Counted from the stretch's first letter, positions 91 to 62,796 are shown. The stretch: DNA of 64,000 nt from Spironucleus salmonicida (GCF_000497125.1 NC_090602.1:1178001-1242000); one strand, 5' to 3'. Translations and numbers: made by a program. Notes: generated by a model not told the origin, from the sequence alone.

Positions 91-2526
91 ATGTCTATAG
101 TGGAGATAGGTGCTTCTGCATTAACTCCAGAAAAAATTTATGAACTTCTTCACAGTAAGGGAATAGCAATATTAGATTCATCTGTATCTGCTCGTTTTAC
201 TACTAAAACATCTATAGAATATATAGTTTCAGATTGCAAAACAGAAAGGGATTCAAATCTTTTAGCATTCATATTATAGCTTTTAAATACTGATAATTCT
301 GTTCCTATTGAATAACTTTAACAATTAATTGCTGGTTTTCATGATAATAAAAGCCTTATTTCTACTCCTATCCATTATACTAATTTCTCAGCTTCTTCAG
401 TTTCGTATTTAGTTTCTATCTCTACATCAGTTTTAACATTTGCATATTCTGTATTTTCAGAGCTAGTATGTATTAAATCTGGAGCTTTTATGCAAGAAAA
501 AGCATTTACTGTAAGAAATTTCAATCAGGTAGCGAAGAATCTTAGTGAAGAAGTTAGAATTTATGCCAATGGATCAAAGAAACATGATTTGAAAAAAGGA
601 GACTAGAATAATCAGTTTTTAAACATAGTTAAATTAAAAGAAAATGACATAATCTTGAGATAAAAGGCAAGAGAGGAACTGAAATGTGGTGTTTATCAAG
701 ATGGTATGGAGAACTAGATATAGTATTAATTTTTTGAATCCTTATATTCATCATTGTTAAACGCTTATTAAGATTCAGTATATAGAGAATTCAATTTGAA
801 ACAATTCAGTCACATAGATGGAAATTGGAAACCAACCTAACTCATGACTCCAGTTTAAACTTCACCATTACTTGAAGACCTTCCAACACTGCTTTATTCA
901 TAACTTTAATCTGAATTATAAACTTCAATTCATCTCCTTTTAAGTGCACAAAGTGCTCTTAAGAAGGGTAAATTACAAATTGGAGAGGGAGTAATGCTAT
1001 TTTTGAATCAACTTTCTACTTCTTCTCCCACAAACAACTTTCCACGTCTTTCAGTTATTTCCCTCATTCTTAAAAATACAATTTTACCATCAAATCAGTC
1101 ACATAGAGTACCAATCCCACCTCCTGGCACTCGTGATCTTTTGCCTAACTAAATGCACTCTAGAAAGCTTGCATTAAACCTTATTACTGAAATTTTCGAG
1201 AAACACGGAGCACTTTAAATCGAGACTCCGACGTTTGAAACAAGAGCAGTATTGATGGGAAAATACGGTGAGGACCAGAAACTGATTTTTAACTTGGAGA
1301 ATTTTGGAGAAGAAATCTGCGCTTTACGCTACGACTTGACAGTGCCATTTTCGCGGTTTTGTGCCACGAACGGAATTAGCTAAATAAAACGTTATCAAAT
1401 AGGTAGAGTCTTCAGACGTGATAAGCCCGTTATGGAAAAAGGCCGTTTCCGCGAATTCTATCAATGTGATTTTGATATTGCTGGAAATTATGCTAGTAAT
1501 GTTCCTGATGCCGAAATATTGTGTGTTATCAGTGAAATTCTTAGTGGACTGAAATTAGGAGATTTCACAGTTATAGTTAGTGATAGAAGAATCTTAGATG
1601 CCGTTATGGGCCTCTGTGGGGTATAAAATGACAAACTAAGAGCTGTATGCGGTTGCGTAGATCAATTAGACAAAATAAGTCAGGAAGAAGTTATCGAGAA
1701 GATTGTCGGTAAAGGTGTAGACCGCGAAATTGGTGTGAATGTGATGAAAATGCTCGGTTTTAAGTCCTCTGGATAAGAGTTTTAAGATAAAGTCAAAGAA
1801 CTAGAATAAAACCAGGAGCTATTTACGGTTATTAAACCTTATTTGGAGGATTTAGCTGAGGTACTAAATTATCTCAAGTTATTTAACGCATAAGCATTGA
1901 AATCGATAGTTATTGATTTTTCACTTGCTAGAGGTTTGGATTATTACACTGGTATGATATTCGAGGCAAAAATGACCAAGACAAACTCTTCAATTGCAGG
2001 TGGCGGTAGGTATGATAAGTTGCTATAAAACAATATACCAGCAGTGGGTGGAAGTGTAGGAATTGAGCGTATTTTTGCATTATTAGAGCAAAAATCCTCT
2101 CAGAAATAGCTTCTCCACGTTTTCATAGCCGCAGCCCCAGGTTCTAGCTTAAAGGAAAGAGTCAGGTTAGCAGGAATGTTGCAGTAAAATAATGTAAAAT
2201 GCGGATTATGTCTGAAGGATGCTGGGTCTCTTAAGTAAATGAAGAAGGATATAGATGAGGCGGTGGAAGCAGGCTGCAAATTTTGTATTTTCTAAGGCGG
2301 TGAAGAAATGGAAAGAGAGGTTTTATAAGTTAAAGACTTAGAAACAGAAGAGTAAGTAGAAATTAAGGCAGATGAGATGTTGTAATATATTTTACAGAGA
2401 TTGGGTGCTAAATATATAGAGTTCAGAGACTAATGGATGAAGTGGATCGTTCAGAGAGTTTAAGAAGGAGAAATTACGGTTGATGATATGATGAAGATGA
2501 TCCAAGAACTGAATACCAAAGAGTGA
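91..2526 (+). CDS. HARS: Histidyl-tRNA synthetase (811 aa) with ~340-aa N-terminal extension
   Basis: Single frame with TAR=Gln; motifs [54 protein letters not shown]; ends GAG TGA. Confidence 0.95.
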
Positions 2527-2538
2527 GAAAAACACTAA

Positions 2539-4110
2539 TCACATCACAAGTTAGATCTCGGAAAGATTATATTCCGATTCAGTGTTTTCTAAGGGCTAAT
2601 CGTCCACCGTGTCAGTTTTACCAAAAGCGATTTTCCAGGTCAGCTTAATACTATTCTGCCTACAATACTTCTTTAAATAGTAATAGATAATTCCGACTGA
2701 AATAATGCCACTTATGACGTCATTTATGTTGAAACTAGACATACTGACGTAAAAATTAGCCTTTGGACTCAGACCGTCGCTAGAGTAGCACAGAATTACG
2801 AACAACACCGGAATAAGCAGTATTTGCGTCACAATGGCCACAACGAATCCCTGCCAGAACAAATCTGCGGCCTGGCAGTAGGTGGTGCTCAGATACTGCA
2901 ACGGCAGTATGATGCCGGATGCGCAGAAAATCCTGATGATGTCCGACGCCGTTTTGACGTAAAGCTCGTTTGAGGAGAACACCAGCGCCAGATAGTTTGC
3001 AAACGCGGCGACTGCGCACAGAAACGTGAAATTGAGCAGGCAGACGTAGAAGACGATGACGATGGAGAGCTGCACGAATCGCGTCTTGCGGCCCGCCCCG
3101 CGCGCGTACGCGGCAGCAGTCAGGTAGCTCCCAGTCGAGTTGTAGCATACGCCGGCGGTGACGTTGTATACCGTACTAAGCGTTCCCCAGGCCGCTAGAA
3201 CCTGCTCGTAGACGGCTTTCTTCTGGTCGATATCCGGCGTTTCGTCGGCATAGCGATTCGCGATTTTCGTGATCAGCACCTGCACCGTGCCCAAAACGAT
3301 CATGCCCGAAGCGCTGGAAATTAAGTCTATGATGCCGATTTTGCAACAATTCTTCAACAATTCGATTTTCCACTTCTTCAAAATCAGCCTAGGGCGAATT
3401 TTGACCACACACGTTTTCTATATCAAAATGAGTGATATAAGCAAGCTGGGGACGTAGCTGATGATGTTCGCGAGGCCGGGACCGAAAATTCCCATATCCG
3501 TTAAAAACAGGAAGCAGGGGCACATGATGGCCAAATTGAGCACCTGCTGCCCGATTTGCATGTAGAGATAAAAGGACATTTGGCCGGTTCCCATGAAAAT
3601 CGCTAGCAAAACGTTGTACCAGATGATGAGAATGGAACCTGCCAACTGAGGCAAAATAAAATCGTAAGCTAGGCCTATGACCTCTACGCCATTGTGCTCG
3701 TCGACGAGAATACCTAAAATTTGACGTAGGCAAGGGACGAGGCAAACGGCGATTAAAACACCGCATATGGTTCCTAATAGGAGCATTTGCATAACGAGGG
3801 CCTCTGCGTGTTCAATTTCGCCTTTTCCAATGCAGTTTCCGATGCAGGCGGAACCACCTACTGCAAAGAACCAGCCGAACATGAATGCCAAATACTCAAA
3901 TGGACCTGCAATCGCTACAGCAGCCAGCTACGCTTCTGCGTTAGGTTACGTGCGTGTTACCAAAATGGGAATTACGAAGAGATATAAAGCTGAAATTAGA
4001 TATGAAATGAGTTAACGAGATGCTAAGGATGCTATTGTTCGTAATGGTGACTTTGATCCTAGTGTAATATCCTCTGCTGTGAGTTCGTTCGTCGGATAGG
4101 TAGAAGACAT
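2539..4110 (-). CDS. MATE family efflux transporter (523 aa)
   Basis: Track ORFs 3418-3891 and 2596-3408 share a frame and join across a TAG; many hydrophobic helices; AAVAIAG, IGNCIGKG and MGIFGPGLA segments typical of MATE. Confidence 0.85.
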
Positions 4111-5166: not shown

Positions 5167-5652
5167 ATGTTTTAACCAAGTCAAAAATTAAAAAATGAAA
5201 TCACTATTTCAGAATTTAAAATTTTTCCAGAATCATCTATACCAATTAAGTATTAAAGTATTTAGTAAACGCTGGATTCTACTGGAATCAAGTAAATGAA
5301 AGCACTTTTAGCATTAAAGACTAAAGAAATTAAAGACAAAGACAATAAAATTTTAGCTCTTTAAACATCAAATTAGCAGATCATTAAAAAATATGAAATG
5401 TAATCCAGATAAATCAATACCCTCATAAAGCAGTTTTAAGAGTCTGAAGAAAAATTATAAATATTAACCCAGAAACTAACATGGACAATAAAGTAGTTGA
5501 ATCTGAGGGATGCAGAGTTAAAAATTAATGGTTTACGTAAGGAAAAGGGTAAGAAACTAGAAATAGTTCACTTAGTAAAGGATTTTTATGTTCCAAAACT
5601 GAACGTCACCCAAGAGGAGTTATAGATAATAAACTAGTATCTGACCGAGTGA
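5167..5652 (+). CDS. Hypothetical coiled-coil protein (161 aa)
   Basis: ATG after AT-rich spacer, open to GAG TGA. Confidence 0.6.
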
Positions 5653-5654
5653 GT

Positions 5655-6371
5655 TCATTCTATGAGCTTATAAGGACCATGTTTTCTCTAATAGGGTTTC
5701 TTTCGTTACATCTCGTACAGATTGGATTTTATCTGAACTGGGGACTTAGAACCTGGGAAAACTTAATATTCTGGTTTTTTATACATGTCATTGAGATGAA
5801 GTCCTTGTTTTTATGTCTGCTTAATATAATCAAATGAATGACCTTAACATAGCATATACATATCTCTCATTTTTACTGCAATATCCGCTTCATATTCGTT
5901 CATTTTAAAAGACAATGCGTTAGGAAAATCAGAGTTTTATTGCCCGTTTCTAGTTACCGGATCTGTGATGTTCTGAACTGTATTCTATTTCTATGTTTTA
6001 ACTATTTACTAACCTACTTAAAAGCGGGAGTCTGGTATTGATGGTTTTTAAAACTAAAGTGTATCAAGAACTTTCTAAGGTTGAGGTCGTGGTCTCTCCT
6101 CTCGTAGACATTCTCTTTATGCCATAAATTGTTCTAGCTTGCCTTAATCAAAATCTTATAATGTGGTTCTTGTTGCTAGTCTAAGACAGTGATTCTTTTA
6201 AACATCTTTATGAGGATTATCAAATGCTGATACTAACCGCTTGACTGATTTTGGTCTAGACAATGGTCTTTATCCGGTTGTTGGTCTAGACCGAAGAGGT
6301 GTCATAGATCCTGTAAGAAATGTATGTTGTTTGTAGTCTGGATAGTTTGACAAAAATTCTAAGGATTTCAT
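5655..6371 (-). CDS. Hypothetical basic low-complexity protein (238 aa)
   Basis: MKSLEFLSNYPDY...RSRPTTGQRPLSRPKS; ATG and TGA share a frame. Confidence 0.6.
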
Positions 6372-6525
6372 TCTAAATTGAAGCGGTATGTAGGTTATCA
6401 ATCTTATATATATTTAGAAGGTGATGTTGCGTAAAAATTTATATATAAGATCATATAATTTGTTTAATTTATTATATGAACTATCCAATAATAGCATTAA
6501 TTTATATCAATATAATTTTCACAAA

Positions 6526-7521
6526 ATGACATTTTATCAATAACTGGCATTATGCCGATTCATGAATAAAGTTGTGCATAAATTAAAAAGCACTACTTAA
6601 AATTAATAAATTCTTAAGCTTACTAAATTTTCAATTGAATAAAGCCAATACTCAAACTAAATCACTAAAATACTCTACAATCTCCGAGAAATTACGTAAT
6701 CTTACCAAGCTGATATTACTATAATTATGAAAATTACATTTAATTGTATTCGGTTTTTCTTTTAGTTCACTCAATACGATAAGAAATTATTCATTTCAAT
6801 TATTGCTAACACCTCTACATATTTTCCTGAATCATCAATCCACTTTATTCCTTTTATATAATAAAATTTTCTTCCCTGCTAGATAATTTAACTCTTTGAT
6901 CCTGAGACTGACAAGGAGAACCTGTTAAGTACGTTTTTCAGATTATTAATGAACCTATCGAAACAGCTTAAGTATGTTTAATAGAATGGTATTTATATAA
7001 GTTTTTTAGCTATCTATGGCTAGGTATATCAATTTTTTATAGATAGCCCTACTGATTTAAGGATGCGCTTCTTTTAAGGAAGACAAGATGCTTCTTAAAA
7101 TTTTACATCTACTGTTAAAAATTTGATTGTAGGCAATATTGAATTTATTCCATCCTCAAACCTAGGATCTTTATTCCTCTCCTTATGTGATCTAACTGAT
7201 TCTTACATTTTACTAGAACGCTGTTTGGAATATTTACCTGATTCGGATAGTGTGATAGAGAAATTCGTGCAACAGTTTGATGATTATTCATATAATAAGA
7301 ATTACATCAAGTTATTATTAGTTTTTAGTAAAAATGAAATCTTGAATCTTGATTTTGATATATTAGTAATACAAATTTTATCGCTTAGTGAACATAGTAG
7401 TATTATTGATTAAATTTTATGCTTCTAAAATATACTTAGAGACGGAGAATGGGATCATATTTTGTCGTTTGAGTGGGATCCAGCAGATGGAGAATGGGAC
7501 TTTTTGTAATGGGCGTAGTGA
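6526..7521 (+). CDS. Hypothetical protein (331 aa)
   Basis: Contains track ORF 7123-7413 in frame; C-terminus has DGEWD twice; ends TAG TGA. Confidence 0.65.
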
Positions 7522-7533
7522 ATATTTAAAAAC

Positions 7534-8130
7534 TCACATAATTACACTTTCAAACTATGATTTTAGAATAATATGCTCTACACAGTCTTCTTTACATTAT
7601 TGTAACTTTCTTTTTAAAATAATTCGTTAATGACCACTTTTGATCGGAATAATCCCAATCGAAGGCTTACAAAAAAGTAAAATTTTTGCTAACTACTATG
7701 TTGTTGACAACTATTGGGCTAATTTATGATGTAATCCGTAGTCAATGAGATAGAATTAATTATTACACTTAAGTACTGAATTTTATGTTATATTATGTAT
7801 TTATATATTGTTACTTTCTAAGAATTTTATTATTTATGAGAGAAATATATACAACTGATCAACATTTGTTTCTTTATCTATTTTGGAGCCTTTAATATAC
7901 TAAATGATTTAATACATCCTAGAATCAATAATTTGGATCCCAATACTTTTCACTAATCCAGGATAATATTAAAGAGAATGTATTCGGTCTATTTCATCTA
8001 TATTTTCTTAATTATGATCAAATTATCGACAAATGAAATGTTTATGACCATTGTATGCTCCTTTAGAAGGCCAATTTCCGTATTATACACTCCTATTAGT
8101 AATTTTCATATCAAGCACTTTTTTAGGCAT
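7534..8130 (-). CDS. Degenerate protein-kinase-like protein (198 aa), probable pseudokinase
   Basis: YPGLVKS (HPNIVK-like), FLESNNIQIHNITQNSVL (catalytic-loop-like, no HRD), FYLIDYG (DFG-like). Confidence 0.55.
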
Positions 8131-8319
8131 TTATTTTTAATATTTTATAATATGTATATATAAGTATATTATATCCATGTAATACTTTCTCAATTATATG
8201 ATATAGTTATGCAACTATTTCTGGTATTCATATAACAGCCTTTATACGTTATCCTTAAATTATTTTAAGTGCATTTCATGTCAATATCTACTGTTAGCAT
8301 ATCTAAACTATCTACATCC

Positions 8320-9830: not shown

Positions 9831-10283
9831 ATGTCGATTTCAATAATTTTTGCCAGTGAATCCGCCACAACTTGTTCAGTAGCAAATTTAGCTTTTCATA
9901 TTTTAGAAAAGAAAGGTATCTAATCTACAATAGCATAGGCAGATCAAGCAACACCTGATATGTTTAAGCAGACGTTTATGTATTTTACCTCTAGCTATTG
10001 TGTAGGCGATCATCCGAATGTAGCTATTGTGAATAACGAATTTTTCGCACACCAGAAAGAGTTTTAAGAAGCAGTAAAAGGATAAAAATTTGCTGTCTAT
10101 GGTTTAGGTAGCAAAAGCTTCAAAACTTATAATGCTGCGGCTGAAAAAGCCGAATAAGTATTCTCAGCTGCTGGTGGAATTAAAATTATCGATACAATGA
10201 AAATTGATACTACTTAAGGTAGTGGTGAAGATCCAGAGGAACTAGTACATGAATTCATTGATAAATTCATTAACAGCATGTGA
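9831..10283 (+). CDS. Short-chain flavodoxin (150 aa)
   Basis: IIFASESATT (FMN phosphate-loop variant), TSSYCVGDHP, KFAVYGLGSKSF. Confidence 0.85.
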
Positions 10284-10298
10284 GTGAACGTAATATAA

Positions 10299-10877
10299 TC
10301 ATTATAGTTTATCGCTATCAATCTCCTGAATTGTGGTACCATAAAAACATCTCTCTATCCCTAGCTTTTATAGATCGATTAACCCTTACTCCGCTTCTTC
10401 TGTACTTCTACATCCTAAAATCACAAAACTACCATTGGGCTACACAGTAATAATAAAGCGTTTACCATCTTAAATTTTAGTATATTTTGCACCAAATCTT
10501 GCCTCAATATCAAAATCAGCACCTGTGATCTCACAAAATTTATTCAAGTCAACATTTTTGCCATAATCGCCAGTTATTAAGGACTAAAAGACTGAAAATG
10601 AAGTTATTTGGTAACTATCATCTATTTTTCTTAATAATTATCGAACAAAAATAAAATTTTCTCTAACAGATTTTATAGTATCAGAGCCTAGAAGAGTTAT
10701 AAAACCAGCTGCAGTAAGTTTGAAAAATGTGTTGTTGTGTGTGAAAAAAATTACTGCTTAAGAGTGATGCATTTGGGCGATAGGCAATATTTCATACACT
10801 TTATCAAGAGGAATTGAATTAACTTTAGCCTGTGCTGTATAGTGATGTGGTTATAAGGTTAATTTGAAGTCAGTCAT
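10299..10877 (-). CDS. TBP: Highly divergent TATA-binding-protein-like protein (192 aa)
   Basis: Two internal repeats ending AAGFITLLGSDT and PNGSFVILGCRSTEEA, matching the TBP SGKxVxTGAKS pattern; TBP-core size. Confidence 0.65.
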
Positions 10878-10989
10878 TATAAATAAAATTAATAAATTAT
10901 ATTAAACCATATTTTATTATATATTAGTTAAGATGTATTTATTTGAAATAAACATATATAATTTTTATTATCTTCATTGCATTCCTTAA

Positions 10990-11517
10990 ATGGAAGGTAT
11001 TTAATATGCGTTTCCTATGAAGTATAGCTATGAAGCCCCTGAAGTTTCTTTCTATGCACCTTCTGATGATACTTCATGTGGGTCAGCTTATGCTAAAGTT
11101 GCAGACTCAGAAGTTTTTGTTTCTCTTTCAGTTTTTCTTTCACCATCTGATGTTTAAGCTGAGATAGATTCAAAAGAAATCTCATCTGAGTTTGTTTCAA
11201 TGGTATTTAACAGTTTAGAACTTGCTGTTCCAAAATAATAAGATGATGATTTCTTACTTTTTAAAATCAAAATTTAACTTGTTTAAACTGGTGGAAGTGA
11301 TGATTATGCAATTGCATTATGCTTAAATTAACTTGCAATTCATTCATCTATTTCTTTAGATACTCGAGAAAAACTATTTGTCAATTAGCTTGATATAAAT
11401 TTCAGTATTTTCGATTCGTCTGATGTAAACCGTAAATTCAATGGATGTAATCTTTTGTAAAGATAATAACTCCATGGAAAATTTGAGATAAAAGATATCT
11501 GGTAGGAAATATGGTGA
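10990..11517 (+). CDS. Possible RNase PH-fold exosome subunit (175 aa)
   Basis: GSAYAKVADSEVFVS and IQLVQTGGSD resemble RNase PH domain-1 motifs. Confidence 0.4.
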
Positions 11518-11529
11518 TATTATATTTAT

Positions 11530-11958
11530 TCATTCATCGTCATTTTCATAATCAACTTTTATTTTGTATAATATTTCCTCGGATACCAATTTGCTAGTTA
11601 TTGCGGCCGTCAAGGAGAGATTCCATTCATCTTATGAAGCAATATTTTAAAGCATAGGAATAGCTTCCATGAACATAATTTCTTACTATTCTTAATCAAC
11701 TGTCAGAATATCTAGAGAGCCGACTTCAAATATGTTCAATATAGTTATAAATTATATTTTTGTTGAGGAACTGTTTTATTTTACAGAAGCTTTTAACTTA
11801 TTCTTAAGTGACTTAAAACCTTTAAAGGAAAGTGTAATAACTAATGGTTTAGGATCCAAGGAATCATACAACTCGGCCTATATATCATGGTATGACAGAA
11901 AGCTAAGGAAATTCTGAATAAAATCAGCATTTTCGTCATCGTATACTTATAAAAGCAT
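11530..11958 (-). CDS. Hypothetical protein (142 aa)
   Basis: MLLQVYDDENADF...YENDDE*; ATG and TGA share a frame. Confidence 0.55.
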
Positions 11959-12007
11959 TTTAACTTTTAAATAAAATTTATTTATATCATATAATAAGCT
12001 GTTCATT

Positions 12008-12042
12008 TCCATTCCTCACTTCTCCTTTCGCTCCACTCATTA
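12008..12042 (+). promoter_or_regulatory. C-rich pre-ATG motif (TCCACT core) of GlyRS
   Basis: TCCATTCCTCACTTCTCCTTTCGCTCCACTCATTA then ATG; the same hexamer precedes five other genes. Confidence 0.6.
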
Positions 12043-13779
12043 ATGTAAAACACCCTGGTCCGCAGATTTATCGTAGCGCCCTCTTTCGAGATTTACGGCG
12101 GCGTAGCCGGCCTCTTCGACCTCGGTCCTGTAGGCTGCCAGCTGCGTCACAATATTATTGACCTCTGGCGCAATATGTTCGTTGTTGAGGATGACCTTTT
12201 TGAGATTCAGTGCACGAATTTGGTGCCTGAGGTGGTACTTAAGGCGTCCGGACACATCGCAAAATTCGCAGATTTGATGGTCAAAGACAGTAAGACTGGC
12301 GAGTGCTTCCGTGCTGATAAAATTATCGAGCAGTTTTTGGAAAAGTTGGCTGAGGCAGAAAAGAATGAGGAGGCTAAAAATAAAATTCAAATTGACATCA
12401 ATTCAGCGGACGGGCTGAATATTCAGGACACCGCCGCATTGATCGCTAAGTACAACATTGTTTCGGAGCGCGGAAATCCCCTTTCTGAGCCTTTCCCGTT
12501 CAATTTGATGTTTGCAACGTCAATAGGCCCCGACGGCCGCGCACCAGCGTATCTACGCCCAGAAACCGCCCAGGGTATTTTCATGAACTTTAAGAGAGGC
12601 CTGGAGCAGTCGCGTTCTCTTCCATTTGGAATCGCTCAAATCGGGTCTGCGTTCAGGAACGAAATTGCGCCCCGCGGTGGACTTCTGCGCGTCAGAGAAT
12701 TCGAATAAGCTGAAATCGAATATTTCATTTAGAACAGAGAGGCAGGTCATCCTCATTATAAGGAAATTGAGGATGTTAGCTGTAACTTCTTCACCTCAGA
12801 TGCTTAGTTAGCTGGCACTCAGCCAGTGGTTTTGACCATTAAAGAAGCTGTAACACAAAAAGTCCTTGCCCATGAATCTTTAGCTTATTATATAGCTAGA
12901 ATTTACATGTTTTTGACAAGGCTGGGACTTGATTCTCAGAAATTGAGATTTAGACAACATATGCCTAAATAGCTAGCTCATTATGCTAAAGATTGCTGGG
13001 ATTGCGATTGCTTGCTTAATTCTGGTTGGACTGAAATAGTTGGTGTCGCTGATCGCTCCGCCTTTGATTTAGAAGTTCATTCTAAGGCATCTGGATAAGA
13101 TTTAAGTGCTTTTATCTAGTATGACACCCCTGTGGAAGTTGAGTAAGCTAAATGTAAGGCAGTTATGAAATTTATAGCTAAAGCACATAAATAAAACGCA
13201 CAGGGAATCAAAAAATATCTCGAGGAATCTGATATGAATGTTATTTTACAGATAAAAACTGAGCTTGAGAATAATTAAAAAACGATCGTTTAGGGCTGTG
13301 AAATTACACCTGAGATGTGCGAATTTACTGTTGGAAAATGCATGAAATACGGTGAAAATGTTATTCCTATTGTTATTGAACCATCAATTGGTATAGGCCG
13401 TGTCTTACATTGTATTTTAGAGCATACTTTTTATTAGAGAGATGAATAACGCACTTCGTTCAAATTCCCAATTGCTATTTCCCCAATCAAGCTTGGGATA
13501 ACAACTTTATAAAACGATGATAGAATTAATCCAATTGCCTAAAAATTAGTTAGAGAATGTAGGAAAGCAGGAATCATGTGTAAATAAGATGATTCAGCTG
13601 TTGCTATAGGTAAGAAATATGCTAGATTTGACGAAATAGGTGTTAGCTATGTAGCTACTATTGATTTTGACACCTTAGAAGATAAAAAAGTTACTATAAG
13701 AGAAAGAGACTCTATGCAGTAAGAAAGAGTTAACCTTGACTAGCTCATTTAAACTTTACTGAATAAGATCAAAGAATGA
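12043..13779 (+). CDS. GARS: Glycyl-tRNA synthetase, eukaryotic/archaeal type (578 aa)
   Basis: [78 protein letters not shown]. Confidence 0.97.
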
Positions 13780-13790
13780 TTTCATATAAA

Positions 13791-14396
13791 TCACTGAGAA
13801 TCTAATTCTTACCTAAAATTCTGTAACACAAAATGAGTAATGTGTAGAATATTAGTCACAGACTATTAATACTCATGCTCCATGAATATATTAAATATAC
13901 AAGGCCAGTTTTAAGGTGATTCTTATATCTTAATAAGCTCAAAAAGAACAGAAATATATTAGCCCTATATCTGGTAATTTATACATGAAATATTCTTGAG
14001 ATACAAATAGTCTTCATAACACTACTCATGCTAAGAATCAAATAGTTTGTTAAAGCTTTTCATTTATTCAGAACAATTTGATAGTGTCAATAATTCTTAT
14101 AAATCTTTCCTTGTGCAATAGGCAATCTAAATTTTATTCTTAAATTTTTATAAGTGGGATCTTATTTAAATTTTGGATTTCGTAGTCAGTAGATTAAAAT
14201 TTTCATTCTATATTAATATTTAAATTAGAATATCATGTTCTTCCTGGGACCAAAATCTTGATTATTATTTTGCTTTATATAGTGATGTTTTAATATTAGA
14301 TAGCACAGATTTTAGTTCTATTAAGGACTATTAGTATAAATAATCTTCAGAGTCTTCTTAAATTGTATCAAGAATTGATAAAGATATGAAGTCCAT
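13791..14396 (-). CDS. Single-repeat Myb-like (SHAQKYF-class) DNA-binding protein (201 aa)
   Basis: FWSQEEHDILI...TKSKIQIRSHLQKF; ends CAG TGA. Confidence 0.75.
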
Positions 14397-15187
14397 TATA
14401 ATTTTAATAACTACTTAATTTGATATATATGTTATCAAATTATGTCTATCATTTAAAAAAGTTTTTATAATCTTTTTACTTATTAATTTTATTTTTATAA
14501 TACTTTGATAATAAAATGATATTTTCTATTTTATATATATTAAAAATTATTTGCTAATGAGTTGTAAAAAACTGTTTCTTAGAAAGAATATTTATATTAT
14601 ATGATTTTGAGATTACGTGATATTATATAGTGGCATGGTAAATTTTCAATAAATAAGAGTATTGGTCGTCAAATTAATTTCTATATATTTATATATTATT
14701 TATAATTTCATAACTGATCATGATTGAGTTAATCTTTTTCCTAATAAACATAATATATAATATATATTATTTATTTTTGTAATTAATAAATGACAAAATC
14801 ATCAATATCATTATATAAGATTTATTTCTTATTTAAAAAAACGTTTCTGTAATCATTGTAATCTACAATTTTCATTGTTTTACCATTTTAATAATGATAA
14901 ACATTGTTATCGCCTTCTTTTCAAGTAAAATAATATATCTAAAAATTTATGAGAATACAAAAGTTTTGCGGTATATCTATGATTAGAGAAAATATTAAAT
15001 AACATATATAATATTTTATCATTCATAAATTAATTTTGACTTTAAAACTATTCTTATCAATATTTCCTAGGACACATAACACGTATTTTAGTACAAAAAA
15101 TTATATTATGCAAGAATTATTATAATTAATAATTACTTGTATCTCTGTAATATTTGAAAATATATAAGTAAAGTTATTATTAATCAA

Positions 15188-16799: not shown

Positions 16800-17114
16800 A
16801 TGTTAATTGTAGTATTTATTAATCCAGATACAAAAATTAAATATTATATGACTATACCAGTTCCATCATTTAACTATAGGCTTCTTTATGATTAAATCAC
16901 AAAAAGAGTATATTTAGATTCAAAATTTCATATTGTTACATAATTTCAATTTAGATTTAATGGAATATTTTGTAGTAGCTAAGATCAGGATATTGATAGA
17001 TCAACAACCATTACAGAAGAAGAGGCCATAAGTTTTATCAAAAAGAATAAGATTACTTTTTTATATTTATTTGAATAGTCTCATTTTTAAAATGAAGATT
17101 ATGACTATGAGTGA
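16800..17114 (+). CDS. Small protein (104 aa), PB1/ubiquitin-fold candidate, paralog of 18073-18381
   Basis: MLIVVFINPDTK...LYLFE...DYE*; visibly similar to the neighbour; ends GAG TGA. Confidence 0.65.
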
Positions 17115-17388: not shown

Positions 17389-17712
17389 ATGGACTTAGTA
17401 TAAGATCATTACAATAGTGTAATGATGTAAATAGGTTAAACTGAATAAAAGATAAATGAACTAAAGAATAGTATTAAGGAACTAGAGGAAACATAAAAAT
17501 TGTAACAAAACATTATGTCATGCTAGTAATAACATATTGAGTAAATTGAACAAAAGTGTTAACGGTTAGAAAAGGTATTAGCACCTAATAGTAAATTAAA
17601 TATCAACTTAGAGTAAATGGAGCGAAAAGTTGTAGCATAGCAATAAGTATTAAAAGATTATTATGGATTTTATAAAATGTTTGTCAACATGAATGATATA
17701 AAAATATAGTGA
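17389..17712 (+). CDS. Small coiled-coil protein (107 aa)
   Basis: Q/E/K-rich heptads; ends TAG TGA. Confidence 0.6.
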
Positions 17713-20540: not shown

Positions 20541-20542
20541 TA

Positions 20543-29675: not shown

Positions 29676-29686
29676 GCGATAATATT

Positions 29687-40420: not shown

Positions 40421-40431
40421 TGAATATTTAT

Positions 40432-41685: not shown

Positions 41686-41737
41686 TTTTGAAATTTTAAT
41701 AAATAACATATTTAATACTATATAATAACAAAAAATT

Positions 41738-43096: not shown

Positions 43097-43098
43097 GA

Positions 43099-43380: not shown

Positions 43381-43441
43381 GGAGGGATGAATAAAAAACT
43401 ATATATTTACTGTTAAATACATATTTAGTATAAGTAAAATT

Positions 43442-44338: not shown

Positions 44339-47300
44339 ATGGAACTCGAGTATGTATAAACCCTCTATTTCAGAAAGCTAGCACCAGAAAAAATAACAAT
44401 TACAGCCACTCATCATTCATAGAAAAAGAATATCATCTTTGCGGGGTTATCAAATGGTACAATTATAGGTTGGGATCTTTATTTGCCAATACCAGTAGCA
44501 CGCCTAGTTGCAATCGCCGCACATTCTGGTGCTGTTACAGCACTTTCTTTTCATCATGTTCATGGTCTACTCGTTTCAGGTGGATTAGACCAATAAGTTC
44601 GTGTTTGGGATGTTGTATTTTCTGATTTGATTGATGTATCAGGTGTTTAATAGCTTAAAATGGAACACTTTTTAAATAATGATCCATTTTATGTAGCTCA
44701 TGGTGGTACTGTAGCACCTTTTAATACACCTAATGACTAAAATTAAATGTCAAGAAAAACTGTACTAGTACAAGAATTTGCAGAAAACTCAAGAAAAATA
44801 GTGCAAATTAAAGAATAAGGTTCAGGGTTTTTAGTTTTATGTGGTGATGGAACTTTTAATTATTTTTAGTAGTTAAATGATTTCACAACGAAGCATTTAA
44901 TAAAATATCCACAATTTCATTTGAAAGATAGAGTATATTTAGGATTAGAAAGGAATGATATTGATAGACGAATGGATATTATGGATTTGGCAAATAAATC
45001 AACAAAAAGCCTTTCTACAAATGCTAGCATAGTAAAAGTAGAGCTAGATTCAAAAGCAGGGAGCTAAACAATTAGAAGCATGGAAAGTCCTTTACTATGT
45101 AGTAAAGTTTCCCCAACATGTTGTATTACTACAAGATAAGATGGTAATATTTTTTGCGGTGATAGTATGGGGTAAGTTCATTGCTTATCTATAAATTAAG
45201 ACAAAATATAATATTAATATTGTATTGGGAATGTTCATCGGTTATAAATTAACTAGATGATGTATTTAGCTAAAGAAAATGCGATTATTACCTGTAGCTA
45301 AGAAGGAACTATCAGAAGTATAGTATCAGTTACTGGCTAGATATATTATTCTTTCAATAACTAGAGAGTTAAATAATTTATTGATATTTGTTGTGTTTTA
45401 AGGGAAGTTTAACTAACTGAAGAAGAAAAGGCCGATAAAATTAAAAAACGTAAATTAGAAAGAGATGCTTAACTAAAAAACCAAAATAGATTAACTACTG
45501 TCAGTACGCCAGATAACAACAGCAATGACTAAATTCACACTAATTTATTACCGCCTAAACCTTCTTCTAGAGGTTCATTGAAGAAAGCTGGAGAAGATGT
45601 TCAGATTCTTGCTAATGTAATATCTTCCTCTGAAATGACTTCTGGAGAATCTGTATCGAATTTGTAAGATAATCTTGTGTTAGCAATAGATTCAGATTCT
45701 CAGATCTCAGTTATTGATGCAGCAGTAGGCAATTCAGTCGCCGAAATATCATTTACTGATATAGCACCAAATCTTGCTATTATTCAATAGGATTTAGAAA
45801 AATATAATATAGATACAACACTTCCAATTGTTTGTGATTTTAGACAATCGAAAAACTCAAGTATGTATGCAGTTTAGAAATAAAATACAAGTGCAAGTGA
45901 TGAATATAAACTTCTAAAATTGAACTATAAGCGTTAGTAGTAATAGGCTTAATCAGATGCTTTTCTTGATCATCCAAATTTGACATTATTTGAGGATTCA
46001 CGAGTTGTTAGTATGTTTGTATTCAATCACTAAGTTACTGGATAGTAGTAGGTGTGCTTTGTGAGATATAATTGCATGGATGTGTATTCTCCTAAATTTA
46101 AGACTAGACAATAAGATTAAAAAATATAGAAGCCTGTTAGACTAATGAGTTTACTATTAATGAGTGTTCAGTAATAAAACTTTGACGAAAATATAAGTGA
46201 GCAGAAAAGGAAAAAGTTAGAATAAGCTGAATTTGATGATAATCTGAAACTAACCTTATCTGCTGATCGCATTTTTAAAAGTAGAAGTGTAGCTGGGGAT
46301 GGGAGAATATCAGGTTTTAATTAGTATATGTAGTAATATAGATTGTAAAAAGTACAATTAGGTAAAATTAATGAACCTTTGTAATAATTAAGGTCCTTGT
46401 CACCATTTATGCCTAGAGATTTAGATAGTATTGAGTCATTTGTTAAAAATAATATTGATAATTAGGGTAACTTACCTAAGATCGATGCTCCTAATAGGCA
46501 AGGTGTTGTGGATTCGATGACTAAAATGTCGGTTCCATTTTATGTTTTAATGGCTACAGAAGATAATATTATTAATAATTTTGACCCACGGGTTGTTAGG
46601 AAACCATATCACAACTACAATATTGATTTTTCGACTATAATGAATGCGGAAACTATTGACTTTTAGAAATATACAGATCTTAACGTTACATATAGAAAAT
46701 TATCAACATAGTAAGAAGGAATTTTAAAAACATCAAAAATTCCAGTTGGAGAACTTCCGAAAATTTAACCTATGCCAAACCCAAACAACATTTACTCACG
46801 CCTAACAAAAGGGACTTTAAGAAATGGAAAGGAAATGGCGTCACTATCATTAAGATAGGCAACGAACTGTTCTTCTTAACGCGAGTCTGAATATCGCTTC
46901 TACCATACAAATGCAAAATCTATTGATTCGTAACAAGATCTTGGATTTTATGATCAAGACGTAATTTACAACGTAGTAGATGATGGATCACTGAAAAATG
47001 ATATTAATAAAATGGATATCGAGGTTAAAAAAGTTTCTGAATTGCCTGCATCAAATTGTTTTGAATCAATAATAGATACTGATCCGAAAAATCATAGAGA
47101 TGTACTAGTTTTTGGTCACGAAGATGGTTCATTGACATTTTAACATTTGCTTTCAGGTCACATGATAAGAGCTTTTGGTGCTCATTCTACAGTTATTACA
47201 TAGATTGTATCATTGTAAAATACATCTGGATTTTAGATAGTCTCTATATCTTCAGATTCCCGATTATTTTCAGTTTTAGTACCAAAAACAAATGCATTTA

Positions 47301-48385
47301 GAATTTCATTTTTAGGTTGCTGTTAATTTCCACATGGTATTATTTCTGCTGCATGTGCTGGTAATAATCAAGTCCTCTTCGCAGATTAACATGGTAATAT
47401 TTATTATTGTTAATTGCCATTAACTTCACTGACAAGATTTTTAAAAATATTTAATGGCCCAGAATTCTTTAAGAAGAATGCAGACAAAGTACCAGTTAGC
47501 CATACTTAAGTTATTGAAGCGTAAGATAGCCCAAATAAGCCAGATTCTCCTTAAAGTAGAGGCTCAAAACGTAGAAAACGATAATAACAAACATAAAATT
47601 CAGGTGATAAGCTATCAGACTTTCCATACAGTGTTCATACAATGTAAATTCGTGAATAAAAGCTTTATGTTGTTTTTGAAAATTCTTGGTGTATGGTTTT
47701 TAATAACCTCTTAGGAGACATCGATCAATGGTAAAGTTCATTTGCGTAAGGTGCCAAGGATACAAAGTTATATTTTAAGTCTAATTCTAACTTTAGTACC
47801 ACACAGGAATATTGCTCTCCAGACTATGTATTCAAAATTAATGAGTCTGATACAATAACAACAGTTTACATTATTGCACCTGTCTAAAATGGACGAAAAA
47901 TGCTTGTGAATCCAAATGAAGTAAAGAACAGAGTTCAAACTGAACTGCATGAGGCGCATATATCTTTAAAAGTTGACGAAGCATAAAAGGAAAAGGACAA
48001 AAAAATGTGTAGAAATGCAAAAATTGAAGGCAAATTTATTAATTAAAATGCAAATGTTAAACTTTAAGAATTTTTAAAAGAAAAAACTGAAATAGTAAAA
48101 GAAGAAGATATGATTAGTATGGGTGCTGATTAATTCATACTAGTTGGCTTTAAGAGTGGAGTTTTGAAAGTATTTAGTAGTCAAGGTGAGATGAAATAAG
48201 AGTTTAAATTTAATGATGCCATAACAGGGATTGTAGGTGTAAATCGGGATTTAATAGGAATGCGAATTATTAATTAATTAAAAGAATTTAGAGGAAATCC
48301 TGATCTTTTAAAGACTTTTTGGGTTGGAATGGCTGATGCTTCTGTTGATTCAGATTAGTGTGGGGTATTTTTAGGCGATGAATGA
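44339..48385 (+). CDS. Large WD40-repeat protein (1348 aa)
   Basis: AGLSNGTIIGWD, AHSGAVTAL...LVSGGLDQQVRVWD, FGHEDGS...AHSTVIT. Confidence 0.8.
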
Positions 48386-58403: not shown

Positions 58404-61247
58404 ATGGAGTTACCTATATTCCAGCCAGTTTCTGATAATTAGGTTAAGGATAATATTATACTTGTAACAGAGAGTAATAACATTCAATACACAATTTATC
58501 AGGACTCTAGTAGCAATAATGACTTTGTAATTACAGTTTTTAATAAATAAAATACCATTGCTGCTATCACAATTAAACCAGGATTCTTTTCAATTCCTAA
58601 CGTGTTCAAATGTTCACAATCTGGATATTGGTTAGCATTATCATTTATGGATTAAAAAATTTCAAAAGGGGAGTTTTATCTGATTTATCTAAATTCGAAG
58701 TCTAAACTTGTTTCTAAAAAGGTTAAATAACATACAAAACCTATTACAGCATTTAATTTCATTAATAATTTTGATTCAAATTCAACACTAGTTTAAGAAA
58801 AAATTGAGTAAACGTCACCCGAATTTCTATTTGGTAATAGTCTTGGTGAAGTATTTGGGGGCCAATATATGCAAAAAGAAATAACTATTAATTTATTAAA
58901 GTAATTTAAAGCTGCTGACATTTTGACATTTAGGTAACTTGCTCCAAATAGAATTCTTAATATCTAGTCTGTTTTTACACAGAAATATTTATTTATTATA
59001 ATTAATTGCGGTTTACAAATTAATATTTATAAAATTAAAAAGTAATCAATTTTAATATCATAATTCAAATCAACAGAATAGGACTTAGAGCTAGCATCTA
59101 TTGTTAGTGATGGAAAAATACCAACATAGTTTTTTGATTGCTTGGTGTATAAAAATACATATAAATTCTTATGGCTAACAAATGGTGGCAAAAATAAATA
59201 ACTTAACTTTCATGAACTAAAAATAAATCTAATTACTAATGAGTGCTCTTAGCTAAGAGGAAACGTCTTAAATAAATTTTCAGATGGAAAGTTACGCGGA
59301 TTTCAGGCTTTTAACTTTTTGGGACTTATTTATACCGATTCATCTTATTATATTATTGATCTTATAACAAAATAAATATTTAATTAGTAAGATTTTAAAT
59401 TCAAGCTAGGTAATAAAGTTTAATAATTTGCTTAAAAATAAACACTGTTTGTGTTGCCCAAATAACCTAGTGATATGTAATCAATAAACTATGTTAAAAG
59501 TGTGGCGTATTGTCAAATATCATTTAAGAATGAGTAATATAATTCATGGAGCTCATTTTTGTACATAAATGATTATGAAAATGCTCTTAAATTTTCCCAG
59601 ACTGATTAATAAACAGATACTGTTTACAAAGAGTATGCTATTCATTTAATTGATAAAAATGACTTAAATAAAGCTGCACAAATTCTAGCTCTGACAAAAT
59701 GCAATTTTATAGAAAAATACTAAGAGCTCATAAGTCAAGGGTATTTTATTCTTGCTAGTTACTTTATTGAGTACCGTATTATTAAAAATATAGATGAGGG
59801 AAAACATGACGAACAATTGTTAACACTACTTTCATAAGTATAGGTAGATAGTATTATTAGAGTAATAAATAGTTATATATAGTAATAAAATTAAAAATAT
59901 GATTTAAACAAACTTTATGGAACAGATAATTTATTTTAGTTTAAAGTTGATAGTATGAAGTAAATGGAGATTGAAGATATCCTTTATGAGTGGTAAAATA
60001 AACTTAGATTATTACTAACAAATAAAAATAGTAGTATGTTCTAATTTTTACTTTAAAAAGTAATTAAAAATATGTTGTTAAATGCTAATTTAGAAAATAT
60101 ATATGCTGAGTTTTGTATGGCTAAAGAGCTTTATGAGTATCCAATTTAATATTATTTGAAGACTAGAAATTATGATTTAATTATAGATATTTATAGAAAA
60201 ACTAATATAGATTTTATATTTTAGTCATTAGATCAAGTTATTTCGCATAAGTAAATAGAATCTTTTGATATAATTTAGCGATATCTTAATGATGATCCTA
60301 TAAACTTCCCATATAATTAACTCATTACTATTTTAAAACATAACTAGCATAAAATTAATGAATAAAACTTTGTAAAATTCTCAGAATGGTATTCTTTGGT
60401 TTATATTGGAAAAAATTCAGTATTTATTCACGTCCTCATATAGATGTTGTAATAATTAAGATTGTAGGATATTGTTGTTTAGATTATTAATACAACACCA
60501 GTATTACTACATTATTAAGAAATTTTAATCTACTCATAAAAATTCTCAAATTTAAAGATTTAAATAGAATGTTTATTGAAGTTAAATAAATTTCAAGATG
60601 CTTTAGAGTTATAATTTTAGTCTTTTAGAAGTATTGATATAAGCGAAATTAAACATATAGAAGAATTTGATGAAAACTAAATCACCTTTGGAAAATTTGA
60701 TGAAGTATTTATTAGCTTTAATGAAGTATTAAGCTTTATTCGTAAAGATAAGATGTTTGAACTTAGATAAATGTATATTAAATTATTTACATGGTACATT
60801 AACATTGAAATTGTTAATTTAAATAACAGTAAAGCTATGTTTTAAGTAAGATATAAACAACTATAAATGATTTTTATAATGATTTCATAGGTAGAATTTT
60901 TACGAATTTCGGATGGAATTAAACTGATTCCTAAAGATATTAAAATTGGAGCTATTATGGGTTTAGTGAACAAATGTTATTCGTAAATAAGTAATAGAGG
61001 AGTATAGATTGATTAAATAATAGATGATGACAAAGACTAGTGCAATAATAAAGAAAATAATGCAAAGTTAGTTGTTTTTAGTGAAAAATTGTTATGCTAA
61101 AAATGTGGAAAAGACTTTAGCAAAAATTGCGACGTTGCCGTTTTTCCATGTACTCATTGCTGGCATAAAAGCTGTCTAAGTGATAATTATGATGAATGCA
61201 AGTTATGCAATGAATAAGCGATAGAAGAATGCTTTAATCCGCTGTGA
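58404..61247 (+). CDS. VPS18: Vps18/Pep3 HOPS-CORVET subunit (947 aa)
   Basis: SWSSFLYINDYENALK...TVYKEYA...AAQILA block; C-terminal RING CQKC...VFPCTHCWHKSC...ECKLCNEQAI..CFNPL. Confidence 0.8.
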
Positions 61248-61257
61248 TAAATTTTGC

Positions 61258-62796
61258 TCACTTCTTCTTAAGATCATCATTTTCGAGATCTTCGATGCCA
61301 ACTTATCCACCTTTATAATCATTATAATTACTCTTAACATTGGCTCTTTCGTCCATTTGCCACATTAATGCATGACCTCCAGTCGCTGTCTCTTTATACG
61401 CAGAATGCATATCCTTTCCAGTTTTATACATGATTGCAACTACTTCATCAAAAGAGACGGAATATTCAAATATACCAGTAACAGCAATAATACCACAGTT
61501 ATATGCAGCTAAAGCAGCATGCCCATTTCTTTGAATACAAGGAGCAATAACTAAACCTTCGATAGGATCACATGTTAAACCTAGTAAGTTTTCAAGAGCA
61601 TTCTTTGCAGCTTATTCATACATCTATAAAACTTGTGAAAGAGTTACATTATCATTTCCAGGGCACAATTTTAACTCCAGATAAACAACTGCCGCGGCGG
61701 CCATTGAACATGCTACACCTACTTCAGCTTAGCATCCAGCTTCAGCTCCAGATACAGAGGCATTAGCTCTACAGATATTGCCGATTACACCGGCAACAGC
61801 TAAAGCATCGCAGATCAAACGATTGACAATAGTTTTAGGAACCTAGCGGGACATTTTATGCTTGTAATAAAAGTATAAGATTGCAGGTAAAACGCCACAC
61901 GCACCACACGTAGGGGTGGTAACAACATCATGGAAGGCAGATCCATTATTTTCGGACACAGCCAATGCATAAGCTTATATAGCAAATCTCTCACCTAAAG
62001 TACCTTTAAAGTTAAGGGCTTTAGCCTTTTCATAAAACTTATGGGCTAGGCGAGGATAAATTAAAATACCACCACAGTCGATGTCTTCAGTTTGCTTTAA
62101 ACCTACTTCTACACAAGATCTCATAGTTTCCCAACATTTTAAGAAGTGTGTCTAAATAAGAACATCCTAAATTACTTTATCATGGGCGAATTACCCTTTT
62201 AAATGCTAGTCCATAAGGATTTTAGGAAGACCTAATTTACTTAAAGGTTCTCTATTCTCAATATCATAGACTAAATGTTATAAAGTCATTTATTTTTCAG
62301 CACAGTACTTGACATAATCAGAGAACAATCTGAAGTTACCAAAAGTTGGCGTATTACCGGATGATTTTTTCTTAAGAGACTCCGAAGTATCATTAGCTGG
62401 TTTAAGATTATTAACATCTGTGGCATCACCGTCTTCAAGAATACCACCACCTACAGAATACCAAACGCGATCACCTATAACTTTATTGGCCTGATCTAAG
62501 GCTTAGAAATGTAAGCCGTTAGTATGCGCAGGCAATCTATGTTCCATATGCCATTCTATTTTGCACTTATCTCCAAGTACCTATAAAATAGCATAATCAG
62601 TTTTATGTCCAGATCCAGTTAATGCCAGAGAACCATATAAATGTGCAATATATTTAGGTGCTGAAGGATAAAGAGACTGGAATAGCTCAGCTGCTTTCTT
62701 AGGGCCCATAGTATGAGATGAAGATGGTCCAGAACCAATTTTGTATAAAGTTCTAAGAGAATCCATATCACGATGGCAGGGTTCATAGCATGCCAT
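61258..62796 (-). CDS. sdaA: Fe-S-dependent single-chain L-serine dehydratase, bacterial type (512 aa)
   Basis: YKIGSGPSSSHTMGP, YGSLALTG, YSVGGG, SGAEAGCQAEVG, GLTCDP, PCIQRN, YKETATGG. Confidence 0.93.

Follow-up and report, generated by a model that had tools for sequence, protein, structure and literature searches.

Close spacing of convergent stop codons in Spironucleus-type DNA: a probable packing limit set by mRNA 3′-end formation

Convergent genes in this stretch of DNA, a 64-kb window of Spironucleus-type diplomonad nuclear DNA, often end so close together that their facing stop codons form a short unit, TGA-Nk-TCA, in which k is most often 10 to 12. What sets this spacing? An earlier note on the same DNA proposed that the distance is quantised, at 2 nt or at 10–12 nt, and that the two stops act together as one element for 3′-end formation on both strands. 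The window has a GC content of ~30%, and its genes are without introns and use TGA as their sole stop. TAA and TAG are both read as amino acids (code 6): only table 6 gives uninterrupted ORFs as long as 2401 aa, and Pfam domains run across many TAA and TAG codons, with 19 such codons read in the glycyl-tRNA synthetase (GlyRS) ORF alone.

An independent gene map was built from table-6 ORFs, six-frame 3-periodic Markov margins, and a shuffled-sequence null. These margins and the null took the place of a simple codon log-odds gene caller, which separated genes poorly because their GC varies from 0.19 to 0.50. Pfam matches at E ≤ 1e-3 were obtained for 18 of the 40 largest ORFs. Spurious long ORFs also occur, such as a 572-aa antisense ORF (46023..47741, − strand) inside a WD40 gene, with a margin of −84. 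Among eight sequencing runs, the four of DNA type contain 0.99–1.00 of sampled words and the four guessed to be RNA contain 0.66–0.68. The map yielded the same 13 convergent junctions as the earlier note, and at the 11 close ones the sequence agrees with the gaps given there, which are 12, 2, 12, 15, 12, 11, 2, 11, 11, 2, and 10 nt in order along the window:

2524..2541: TGA-N12-TCA, between histidyl-tRNA synthetase (91..2526, + strand) and a MatE transporter (2539..4110, − strand); sequence, with a Pfam match for both.
5650..5657: TGA-N2-TCA, between two genes for hypothetical proteins (5296..5652, + strand; 5655..6371, − strand); sequence and deposited proteins.
7519..7536: TGA-N12-TCA, between 6388..7521 (+ strand) and 7534..8274 (− strand); sequence, with 7/239 and 0/271 null ORFs scoring as high in coding margin.
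10281..10301: TGA-N15-TCA, between a flavodoxin gene (9831..10283, + strand) and a TBP-like gene (10299..10955, − strand); sequence and Pfam.
11515..11532: TGA-N12-TCA, between 10933..11517 (+ strand) and 11530..12012 (− strand); sequence, with a coding-margin null of 20/351 (weak) and 1/404.
13777..13793: TGA-N11-TCA, between glycyl-tRNA synthetase (12043..13779, + strand) and 13791..14636 (− strand); sequence, with Pfam for GlyRS.
20538..20545: TGA-N2-TCA, the perfect palindrome TGATATCA, between 18786..20540 (+ strand) and 20543..21073 (− strand); sequence.
29673..29689: TGA-N11-TCA, between a 2401-aa ORF (22470..29675, + strand) and a DNAAF11/LRR gene (29687..30853, − strand); sequence, Pfam, and margins of +199 and +65.
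40418..40434: TGA-N11-TCA, between 39143..40420 (+ strand) and 40432..41799 (− strand); sequence, with a coding-margin null of 3/345 and 0/247.
43094..43101: TGA-N2-TCA, rejected, between 42755..43096 (+ strand) and 43099..43422 (− strand); the minus-strand ORF is unsupported.
61245..61260: TGA-N10-TCA, between a 947-aa ORF (58404..61247, + strand) and L-serine dehydratase (61258..62796, − strand); sequence, Pfam SDH_alpha and SDH_beta, and margins of +87 and +55.

Supportable ORFs meet at 10 of these 11 junctions, and the junction at 43096/43099 falls. Its 107-aa minus-strand ORF carries no coding signal (98/228 null ORFs equal or exceed its margin) and ends in the context gatTGA, and a search among the proteins of 58–188 aa in a collection of 5.8 billion proteins found no match to it. 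Because margin, stop context, and protein search all fail to support this ORF, we dropped the junction; if 42755..43096 is a real gene, its convergent gap becomes 345 nt. The region contains alternative ORFs as well. The other two 2-nt pairs are better founded. At 5652/5655, the plus- and minus-strand ORFs correspond to deposited proteins P0003 and P0001, with C-termini identical to the ORF ends, and null ORFs score as high in 0/272 and 8/263 cases, respectively. At 20540/20543, the minus-strand ORF is identical (100%) to the 176-aa deposited protein P0002, while support for the plus-strand ORF consists of its 584-aa length and a positive margin (+24 to +28), with the non-consensus stop context attTGA.

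The remaining pairs differ in how well each partner is backed. In the 15-nt pair, the plus-strand gene matches Flavodoxin_1 (E=4e-11) and the minus-strand gene matches TBP at E=1e-4, under the gathering score. A Pfam search with 6388..7521 and 7534..8274 gave no match at E ≤ 1e-3. The 281-aa partner of GlyRS (13791..14636) has a weak Myb_DNA-binding match (E=0.08) and a weak coding margin (null 61/246), and a second in-frame minus-strand stop, the TCA at 13782-13784, lies 2 nt from the plus-strand stop of this pair. At 40420, the plus-strand stop is doubled in frame, as TGATGA.

Close spacing at 10–12 nt is not what chance placement would give. With 43099..43422 dropped, convergent genes end ≤15 nt apart in 10 of the 13 pairs and 231, 345, and 545 nt apart in the remaining three. 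Seven of the 13 fall at 10–12 nt (P=7.8e-5 against any smooth, monotone geometric law, under which the probability of a gap in this interval can reach at most 0.096), and this value holds after a generous correction for the post hoc choice of interval. The interval 3–9 is empty among the 10 close pairs, with P=0.003 under a uniform 0–15 law in what is a post hoc test. Across the whole window, counts of TGA-Nk-TCA are flat, with 22 at k=2, 20, 24, and 19 at k=10, 11, and 12, and a range of 11–32 over k=0..30, so the 10–12 pattern is a property of gene ends and not a general periodicity. Reading-frame quantisation was considered and set aside: the gaps fill all three residue classes modulo 3 (2, 2, 11, 11, 11; 12, 12, 12, 15; and 10), and there is therefore no frame rule. 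The observation in the earlier note is accordingly confirmed in part: the 10–12-nt cluster is real, but the 2-nt class, with two solid pairs in the window, is not statistically established.

The stops themselves carry the context described for polyadenylation in this genus. In Spironucleus, UGA is reported to serve both as stop codon and as poly(A) signal, in the form A-G-UGA (PMC1805757; PMC2874811; PMC3916229). As the earlier note had assumed, the gene calls fit such a stop-overlapping signal: positions −2/−1 are AR in 27 of 40 calls against a background of 0.22 (P=6.5e-10) and AG in 14 of 40 against 0.06, and 37 of the 40 have a purine at −1, against 0.50 over all codons. At +1, directly after TGA, where the published signal favours T, the calls have 20 T, 11 G, 9 A, and no C, and the first 10 nt downstream of stops are 80–81% A+T, compared with 70% in the window. 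Within coding sequences, the sense strand shows no depletion of ARTGA, which occurs 178 times where codon shuffles predict 180.1 (z=−0.18); AGTGA occurs 31 times against 40.2 expected from the shuffles (z=−1.5). The signal must therefore comprise more than this pentamer. Avoidance of the signal inside coding sequence is a property described for Giardia (AGURAA) and has not been published as a criterion for Spironucleus.

The distance over which the published signal acts matches the spacing found here. In the portions of the literature that report Spironucleus ESTs, the stop lies on average 13.2 nt from the first A of the tail, with 122 of 134 at 9–14 nt (Andersson et al, 2007; PMC1805757); for S. 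barkhanus the distance is given as about 13 nt (Roxstrom-Lindquist et al, 2010; PMC2874811), and another account describes an AGTGA signal that is followed by the tail after about 14 bp (Xu et al, 2014; PMC3916229). Gaps in the 10–12-nt class average 11.29 nt, which places the A of the partner's TCA 12–14 nt past the stop, at a mean of 13.29 nt. With gaps of this length the two 3′ UTRs would overlap completely, neither entering the coding sequence of the partner. Taking the 13-nt UTR length from the literature (PMC1805757), two UTRs sum to about 26 nt, and the stop-to-stop distance is shorter than this sum, at ≤15 nt, in 10 of 13 pairs. Judged from these published averages, which come from other genes, cleavage in the 10–12-nt pairs would fall at the stop of the partner.

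We consider it probable that the 10–12-nt spacing is a packing limit imposed by mRNA 3′-end formation, with convergent genes sharing one minimal 3′ UTR. The first part of the mechanism is already published: the poly(A) signal (A-R-UGA) includes the UGA stop, and the transcript is cleaved and polyadenylated at a nearly fixed 9–14 nt downstream; because that distance is nearly fixed, each gene needs about 13 nt of A+T-rich sequence past its stop. No promoter would be needed between convergent genes, and deletion pressure could drive them together. In the end state, each roughly 13-nt 3′ UTR would consist of the spacer and the complement of the partner's stop codon, so that the two UTRs would be mutual reverse complements and each mRNA would end at or next to the partner's stop, without crossing its coding sequence. 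The spacing could thus emerge from two independent stop-embedded signals, with no dedicated symmetric element, and the 2-nt pairs would be rare exceptions in which the final three or so codons of each gene act as the UTR of the other. Same-strand neighbours are spaced more widely: stop-to-first-ATG distances begin at 31–47 nt (31, 33, 38, 45, 47) when overlapping first-ATG ORF calls, whose true starts are uncertain, are excluded. Such larger minima are expected if only convergent pairs dispense with a promoter.

The 15-nt pair, the eighth in this group, supports a packing limit. Its gap contains the second, out-of-frame AGTGA pointed out in the earlier note (10283-10287), whose TGA (10285-10287) is 11 nt from the TCA at 10299. 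Two features of the gap distribution sit less easily with a packing limit. A tail of gaps at 13–40 nt is predicted, and the window has only one (15) before the gaps jump to 231, 345, and 545; and a hard wall at 10 leaves two well-supported 2-nt pairs unexplained.

The interpretation offered in the earlier note, in which the two stops form one symmetric bidirectional 3′-end element with the partner's TCA at or near the cleavage site, appears unlikely. Under this reading the TCA itself would take part in cleavage through its CA dinucleotide, and two registers (2 and 10–12 nt) would be selected directly. It does account for several observations: the A of the partner's TCA lies where the published 13.2-nt mean (PMC1805757) would put the first tail A, the near-empty upper range of the gaps (≤15 nt in 10 of 13 pairs, ≥231 in the other three) is easier to reconcile with a selected register than with a soft limit, the extra AGTGA in the 15-nt pair restores an 11-nt unit, and the GlyRS pair has its additional in-frame minus-strand stop at the 2-nt position. 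That AGTGA was sought post hoc, however, and a TGA at one of three fitting offsets has a chance of ~0.06 (1216 TGA in the 64,000 nt of the window). The window has 20 other 3′ ends, and at 0 of these 20 does a TCA begin 10–12 nt past the stop; their downstream sequence is simply about 80% A+T, with no positional C-A signal. It follows that neither TCA nor CA is required for 3′-end formation, and that one symmetric element is not needed. The TCA does lie at or near the expected cleavage position (mean 13.3 nt against the published 13.2), but it is not a required element, and two independent stop-embedded signals at the packing limit would give the same picture. Spacers of the close junctions conserve nothing beyond A+T richness, and the 2-nt pairs have shrunk from three to two through the loss of a false one. 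A dedicated bidirectional terminator or protein-binding palindrome would show extra conserved sequence at 3′ ends generally, and none was seen at the 3′ ends of the window. Taken as a whole, the interpretation is partly supported.

A related reading, which we regard as quite unlikely, is that selection holds discrete registers, with 10–12 nt as the main one and 2 nt as a minor one. The 8–18 bp unit would then be a true bidirectional 3′-end module, in which the machinery measures from each UGA and cuts at the partner's stop or a fixed step past it, producing mRNAs with perfectly complementary 3′ ends of 13–15 nt. Were this so, spacer length would be under purifying selection genome-wide, and AGTGA 'repairs' such as that at 10283-10287 would be compensatory.

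It is very improbable that the pattern arose by chance and ORF calling, through a one-stop code that makes spurious long ORFs common and a choice of partners for their close ends. Spurious ORFs do exist here, as the 572-aa antisense example illustrates, the reported partner 43099..43422 proved to be unsupported, and coding margins are weak for 13791..14636 and 10933..11517. Nevertheless, at least one partner has a Pfam match in five of the eight pairs of the 10–12/15 group (both partners at 2526/2539 and 10283/10299, and one at 13779/13791, 29675/29687, and 61247/61258), and all three deposited proteins compared end at the ORF ends used. The A-R-TGA enrichment across calls and the clustering at 10–12 nt also argue against an artefact, and the flat window-wide counts mean that a chance TCA would not favour 10–12.

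It is extremely improbable that TGA-N10–12-TCA is bound, as DNA or RNA, by a dimeric factor whose half-sites are separated by about one helical turn, the site serving as a roadblock or terminator between convergent genes. Nothing speaks for this except the geometry of an inverted repeat and the difference of roughly 10 nt that separates the two proposed classes. The half-sites are stops plus the −1 purine already accounted for by the poly(A) context of each gene, the spacer varies in length (10, 11, 12) and is unconserved in sequence, and the motif is not over-represented elsewhere in the window. The earlier remark that the two classes differ by about one helical turn came without evidence, and one member of the 2-nt class has been lost. 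The TGA-N2-TCA arrangement may resemble bZIP/CRE-type palindromes; nothing in the data calls for this resemblance or for the helical-turn idea.

These junctions stand close to systems already described in Spironucleus and in other eukaryotes. As in the published dual-use signal, TGA is the sole stop, with A at −2, a purine at −1, and an A+T-rich stretch after the stop, and a 10–12-nt gap together with the stop of the partner adds up to the UTR length in print. In contrast, the relevant passages of those accounts (PMC1805757; PMC2874811; PMC3916229) do not mention stop-to-stop spacing of convergent genes, and a literature search for such a rule found no statement in the passages it returned; Xu et al (2014; PMC3916229) report just 47 genes that overlap, by 38 bp on average. 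In Giardia intestinalis, another diplomonad with a compact genome, 3′ UTRs of convergent neighbours overlap as well, with 892 of 1,097 mapped tail-to-tail pairs overlapping in transcript (Franzen et al, 2013; PMC3610916), while the overlap here is deduced from gaps and published UTR length. Unlike the Spironucleus signal, the Giardia AGURAA overlaps the stop in a minority of genes (potential WGURAA dual-use signals in 7.4–18.3% of genes across G. lamblia A, G. lamblia B, and G. muris; PMC11529991), and the passages concerned report variable UTR lengths and describe no discrete spacing. Because the signal includes the stop in the present genes, their overlap takes the form of a fixed spacing. 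Convergent genes with shared polyadenylation regions or bidirectional termination zones between them are described in Arabidopsis (PMC3032780) and yeast (bioRxiv 10.1101/2022.11.02.514956), where one short intergenic region likewise serves 3′-end formation on both strands; as described there, these zones are tens to hundreds of bases long and have no anchor in the stop codons, whereas the unit in this window is 16–18 bp and bounded by two stops. Metagenome contigs queried with the GlyRS protein gave 80 loci that were kept, of which 79 are prokaryotic-looking at 28–38% identity and one, a 1,033-bp contig (L001) with 52% identity to GlyRS, ends 2 nt past its gagTGA stop; none of these 80 loci is informative on spacing.

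Nothing is overturned by these results: both the stop-embedded signal and the 13-nt UTR had been published before, and the spacing is a consequence of the two. The sample is one 64-kb window with 12–13 convergent pairs. A TGA-N10–12-TCA junction with A-R before each stop offers a cheap reality test for hypothetical convergent ORFs, useful because spurious ORFs are long under a one-stop-codon code. If the rule holds genome-wide, it would allow the distance between poly(A) signal and cleavage site to be read simply from sequence alone in an organism with reduced and poorly understood 3′-processing machinery, and would mark a physical packing limit for convergent genes in a eukaryote.

Translated with NCBI table 6, the window is filled with long uninterrupted open reading frames (ORFs) of up to 2401 aa, and 18 of the 40 largest have a Pfam match at E≤1e-3. 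The matches include histidyl- and glycyl-tRNA synthetases (HisRS and GlyRS), MatE, flavodoxin, RNase H, DNAAF11/LRR, rRNA adenine dimethylase, GT41 glycosyltransferase, and an iron-sulfur L-serine dehydratase. The TGA-only code, the absence of introns, and the anaerobe-type enzymes point to a Spironucleus-type diplomonad. Candidate lateral acquisitions are MatE, flavodoxin, and the serine dehydratase, which is of bacterial type. Genes were mapped by their coding margin, the score from a six-frame 3-periodic Markov model, with each test gene excluded from training and with margins calibrated on ORFs arising in Markov-simulated sequence of matching composition. In 4-kb bins across the window, GC content lies between 0.21 and 0.39; the S. 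salmonicida genome is described in excerpts of two papers as 12.9-14.7 Mbp with 33.4-33.5% GC and nine chromosomes (PMC3916229, PMC9509377), and its public annotation lists 8,661 genes (PMC9509377). Individual genes spread more widely, with the MatE gene (2539-4110) at 47%, two neighbouring genes (54797-57295) at 50%, and several others at 19-25%, which fits the variation in base composition along the genome noted in passages of an earlier study (PMC1805757). The margin of the MatE gene is negative when the model is trained on the other genes. A 2.5-kb stretch of 19-21% GC (16232-18785) lacks a large gene, and three small ORFs within it, each with a good coding margin and an A-R-TGA stop, may be unrecognised small genes:

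16800..17114, plus strand, small ORF
17389..17712, plus strand, small ORF
18073..18381, plus strand, small ORF

The independent gene map recovers all 13 convergent junctions described in the earlier note within the window. The 11 close ones are present in the sequence as reported, with 12, 2, 12, 15, 12, 11, 2, 11, 11, 2, and 10 nt between facing stops, and ten of them stand as gene pairs. A TGA-only code readily gives rise to long spurious ORFs, as illustrated by a 572-aa antisense ORF (46023-47741, minus strand; margin -84) inside a 1400-aa WD40 gene (44183-48385, plus strand), and partners without a Pfam match were therefore checked separately. Both genes of the 5652/5655 pair (last base of the plus-strand stop/first base of the minus-strand TCA) match deposited proteins of 118 aa and 238 aa, which have later ATG starts and C-termini identical to the ORF ends used here, and the minus-strand gene 20543..21073 is matched over its full length by a deposited protein. 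The exception is 43096/43099, where the minus-strand ORF 43099..43422 has a margin at null level (equalled or exceeded by 98 of 228 null ORFs), a non-consensus stop context (gatTGA), and no matching protein in the protein collection searched. This leaves two of the three 2-nt junctions as gene pairs, and the plus-strand gene 42755..43096, if real, has a convergent gap of 345 nt.

Seven of the 13 convergent pairs have gaps of 10-12 nt, an excess beyond chance even under the most favourable geometric distribution, which places at most 0.096 of its mass there (P=7.8e-5), and this class is robust. Across the 64-kb window, TGA-Nk-TCA occurs 22 times at k=2 and 20, 24, and 19 times at k=10, 11, and 12, with a range of 11-32 over k=0..30 and no excess at either spacing, so that the regularity is a property of gene ends. 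Convergent gaps above 12 nt in the window are 15 nt, then 231, 345, and 545 nt. The 15-nt pair reads TGAGTGA, placing an out-of-frame AGTGA 11 nt before the TCA, a suggestive fit to an 11-nt unit that was recognised post hoc and has a chance of ~0.06 for a TGA at one of the three fitting offsets.

The 2-nt spacing is not established as the second class that had been proposed: only two solid pairs have it, a roughly 1-in-10 event if gaps below 10 nt are evenly spread. No pair has a gap of 3-9 nt; if gaps were uniform over 0-15 nt this would have P=0.003, in a post hoc test. The two solid pairs show that the predicted untranslated region (UTR) can overlap the end of the partner's coding sequence by ~8 nt. 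The minus-strand gene of the 13779/13791 pair has another in-frame TGA three codons past its stop (TCA at 13782-13784) and only 2 nt away from that of GlyRS, a single case that hints that genes may switch between the two arrangements through gain or loss of a stop three codons away. A tandem in-frame stop is also found at the end of the plus-strand gene 39143..40420 (TGATGA, 40418-40423).

That the 3'-end signal is embedded in the stop codon and followed by a 13-nt UTR is already known. According to passages of the S. salmonicida EST study, the mean distance between the stop and the first A of the tail is 13.2 nt (9-14 nt in 122 of 134), A is favoured two bases before TGA and T after it, and a U-rich stretch is found close to the tail (PMC1805757); excerpts on S. 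barkhanus describe the same pattern at about 13 nt (PMC2874811), and those of the genome paper give the signal as AGTGA and place the tail about 14 bp further downstream (PMC3916229). The stops in the window match this context, bearing out the part of the earlier note that made each TGA part of its own poly(A) signal. Among 40 gene calls, position -1 is a purine in 37, and positions -2/-1 are AR in 27 (P=6.5e-10 against a codon-wide frequency of 0.22) and AG in 14 (vs 0.06). No stop is followed by C: the +1 base is T at 20 stops, G at 11, and A at 9, and the first 10 nt downstream of stops are 80-81% A+T. At the last sense codon there is a strong bias to GAA, GAG, AAG, AAA, TAG, TAA, CAG, or ATG, so that the 3'-end signal holds the C-terminal residue mostly to E, K, Q, or M. 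A GC-rich 1,033-bp metagenome contig coding for a GlyRS 52% identical to that of the window (L001:900-1033) has a stop in the context gagTGA two bases short of the contig end; the contig may come from another TGA-stop diplomonad. Besides S. salmonicida, diplomonads with TGA as the only stop include S. vortens, S. barkhanus, Hexamita, and Trepomonas.

The proposed poly(A) pentamer is not avoided within genes: on the sense strand of 39 coding sequences (55,530 nt), ARTGA has 178 occurrences where codon shuffles predict 180.1, and AGTGA has 31 where they predict 40.2 (z=-1.5). The pentamer alone therefore cannot define a 3'-end site, and recognition of the true site must depend on more than A-R-TGA. 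In Giardia, where the signal usually stands apart from the stop, the hexamer is by contrast reported to be depleted in coding sequence.

A gap of 10-12 nt places the A of the partner's TCA 12-14 nt past each stop, and the mean of 13.29 nt agrees with the published 13.2 nt (PMC1805757, excerpts), upholding the proposed distance. On the simplest reading, each 3' UTR is made up of the spacer together with the partner's stop in complement, and two independent stop-embedded signals have been pushed to their minimal distance. Both UTRs would then be the same 13-15 bp on opposite strands, and neither transcript would have to enter the other gene's coding sequence. Convergent pairs can reach this limit because no promoter is needed between them. 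For same-strand neighbours in the window, the shortest intervals between one gene's stop and the first ATG of the following gene are 31-47 nt, overlapping first-ATG calls aside; one such overlap is the ATGA at 22470-22473, shared by the stop of a double RNase H-domain gene (21217..22473, plus strand) and the first ATG of the 2401-aa ORF. A soft packing limit predicts that further gaps trail off between 13 and 40 nt, however, and the window has one, of 15 nt; given this thin tail, the spacing may instead reflect a selected register. The single symmetric element proposed in the earlier note, with the partner's TCA at the cleavage site, fits the geometry but is probably not what the junctions represent. 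A TCA starts 10-12 nt past the stop in none of 20 other 3' ends, where downstream sequence is rich in T and A but has no C-A preference at any position, and the spacers have only composition in common; a functional TCA is not needed. Independent signals at the packing limit give the same picture. Neither a protein-binding palindrome nor a difference of one helical turn between the classes finds support.

In Giardia, tail-to-tail transcript overlap is pervasive, affecting 892 of 1,097 pairs according to passages of PMC3610916. The literature search found no statement of discrete stop-to-stop spacing in the text passages of diplomonad and poly(A) papers. Apparently unstated in print, the stop-to-stop spacing of convergent genes is a direct corollary of the Spironucleus 3'-end rule.
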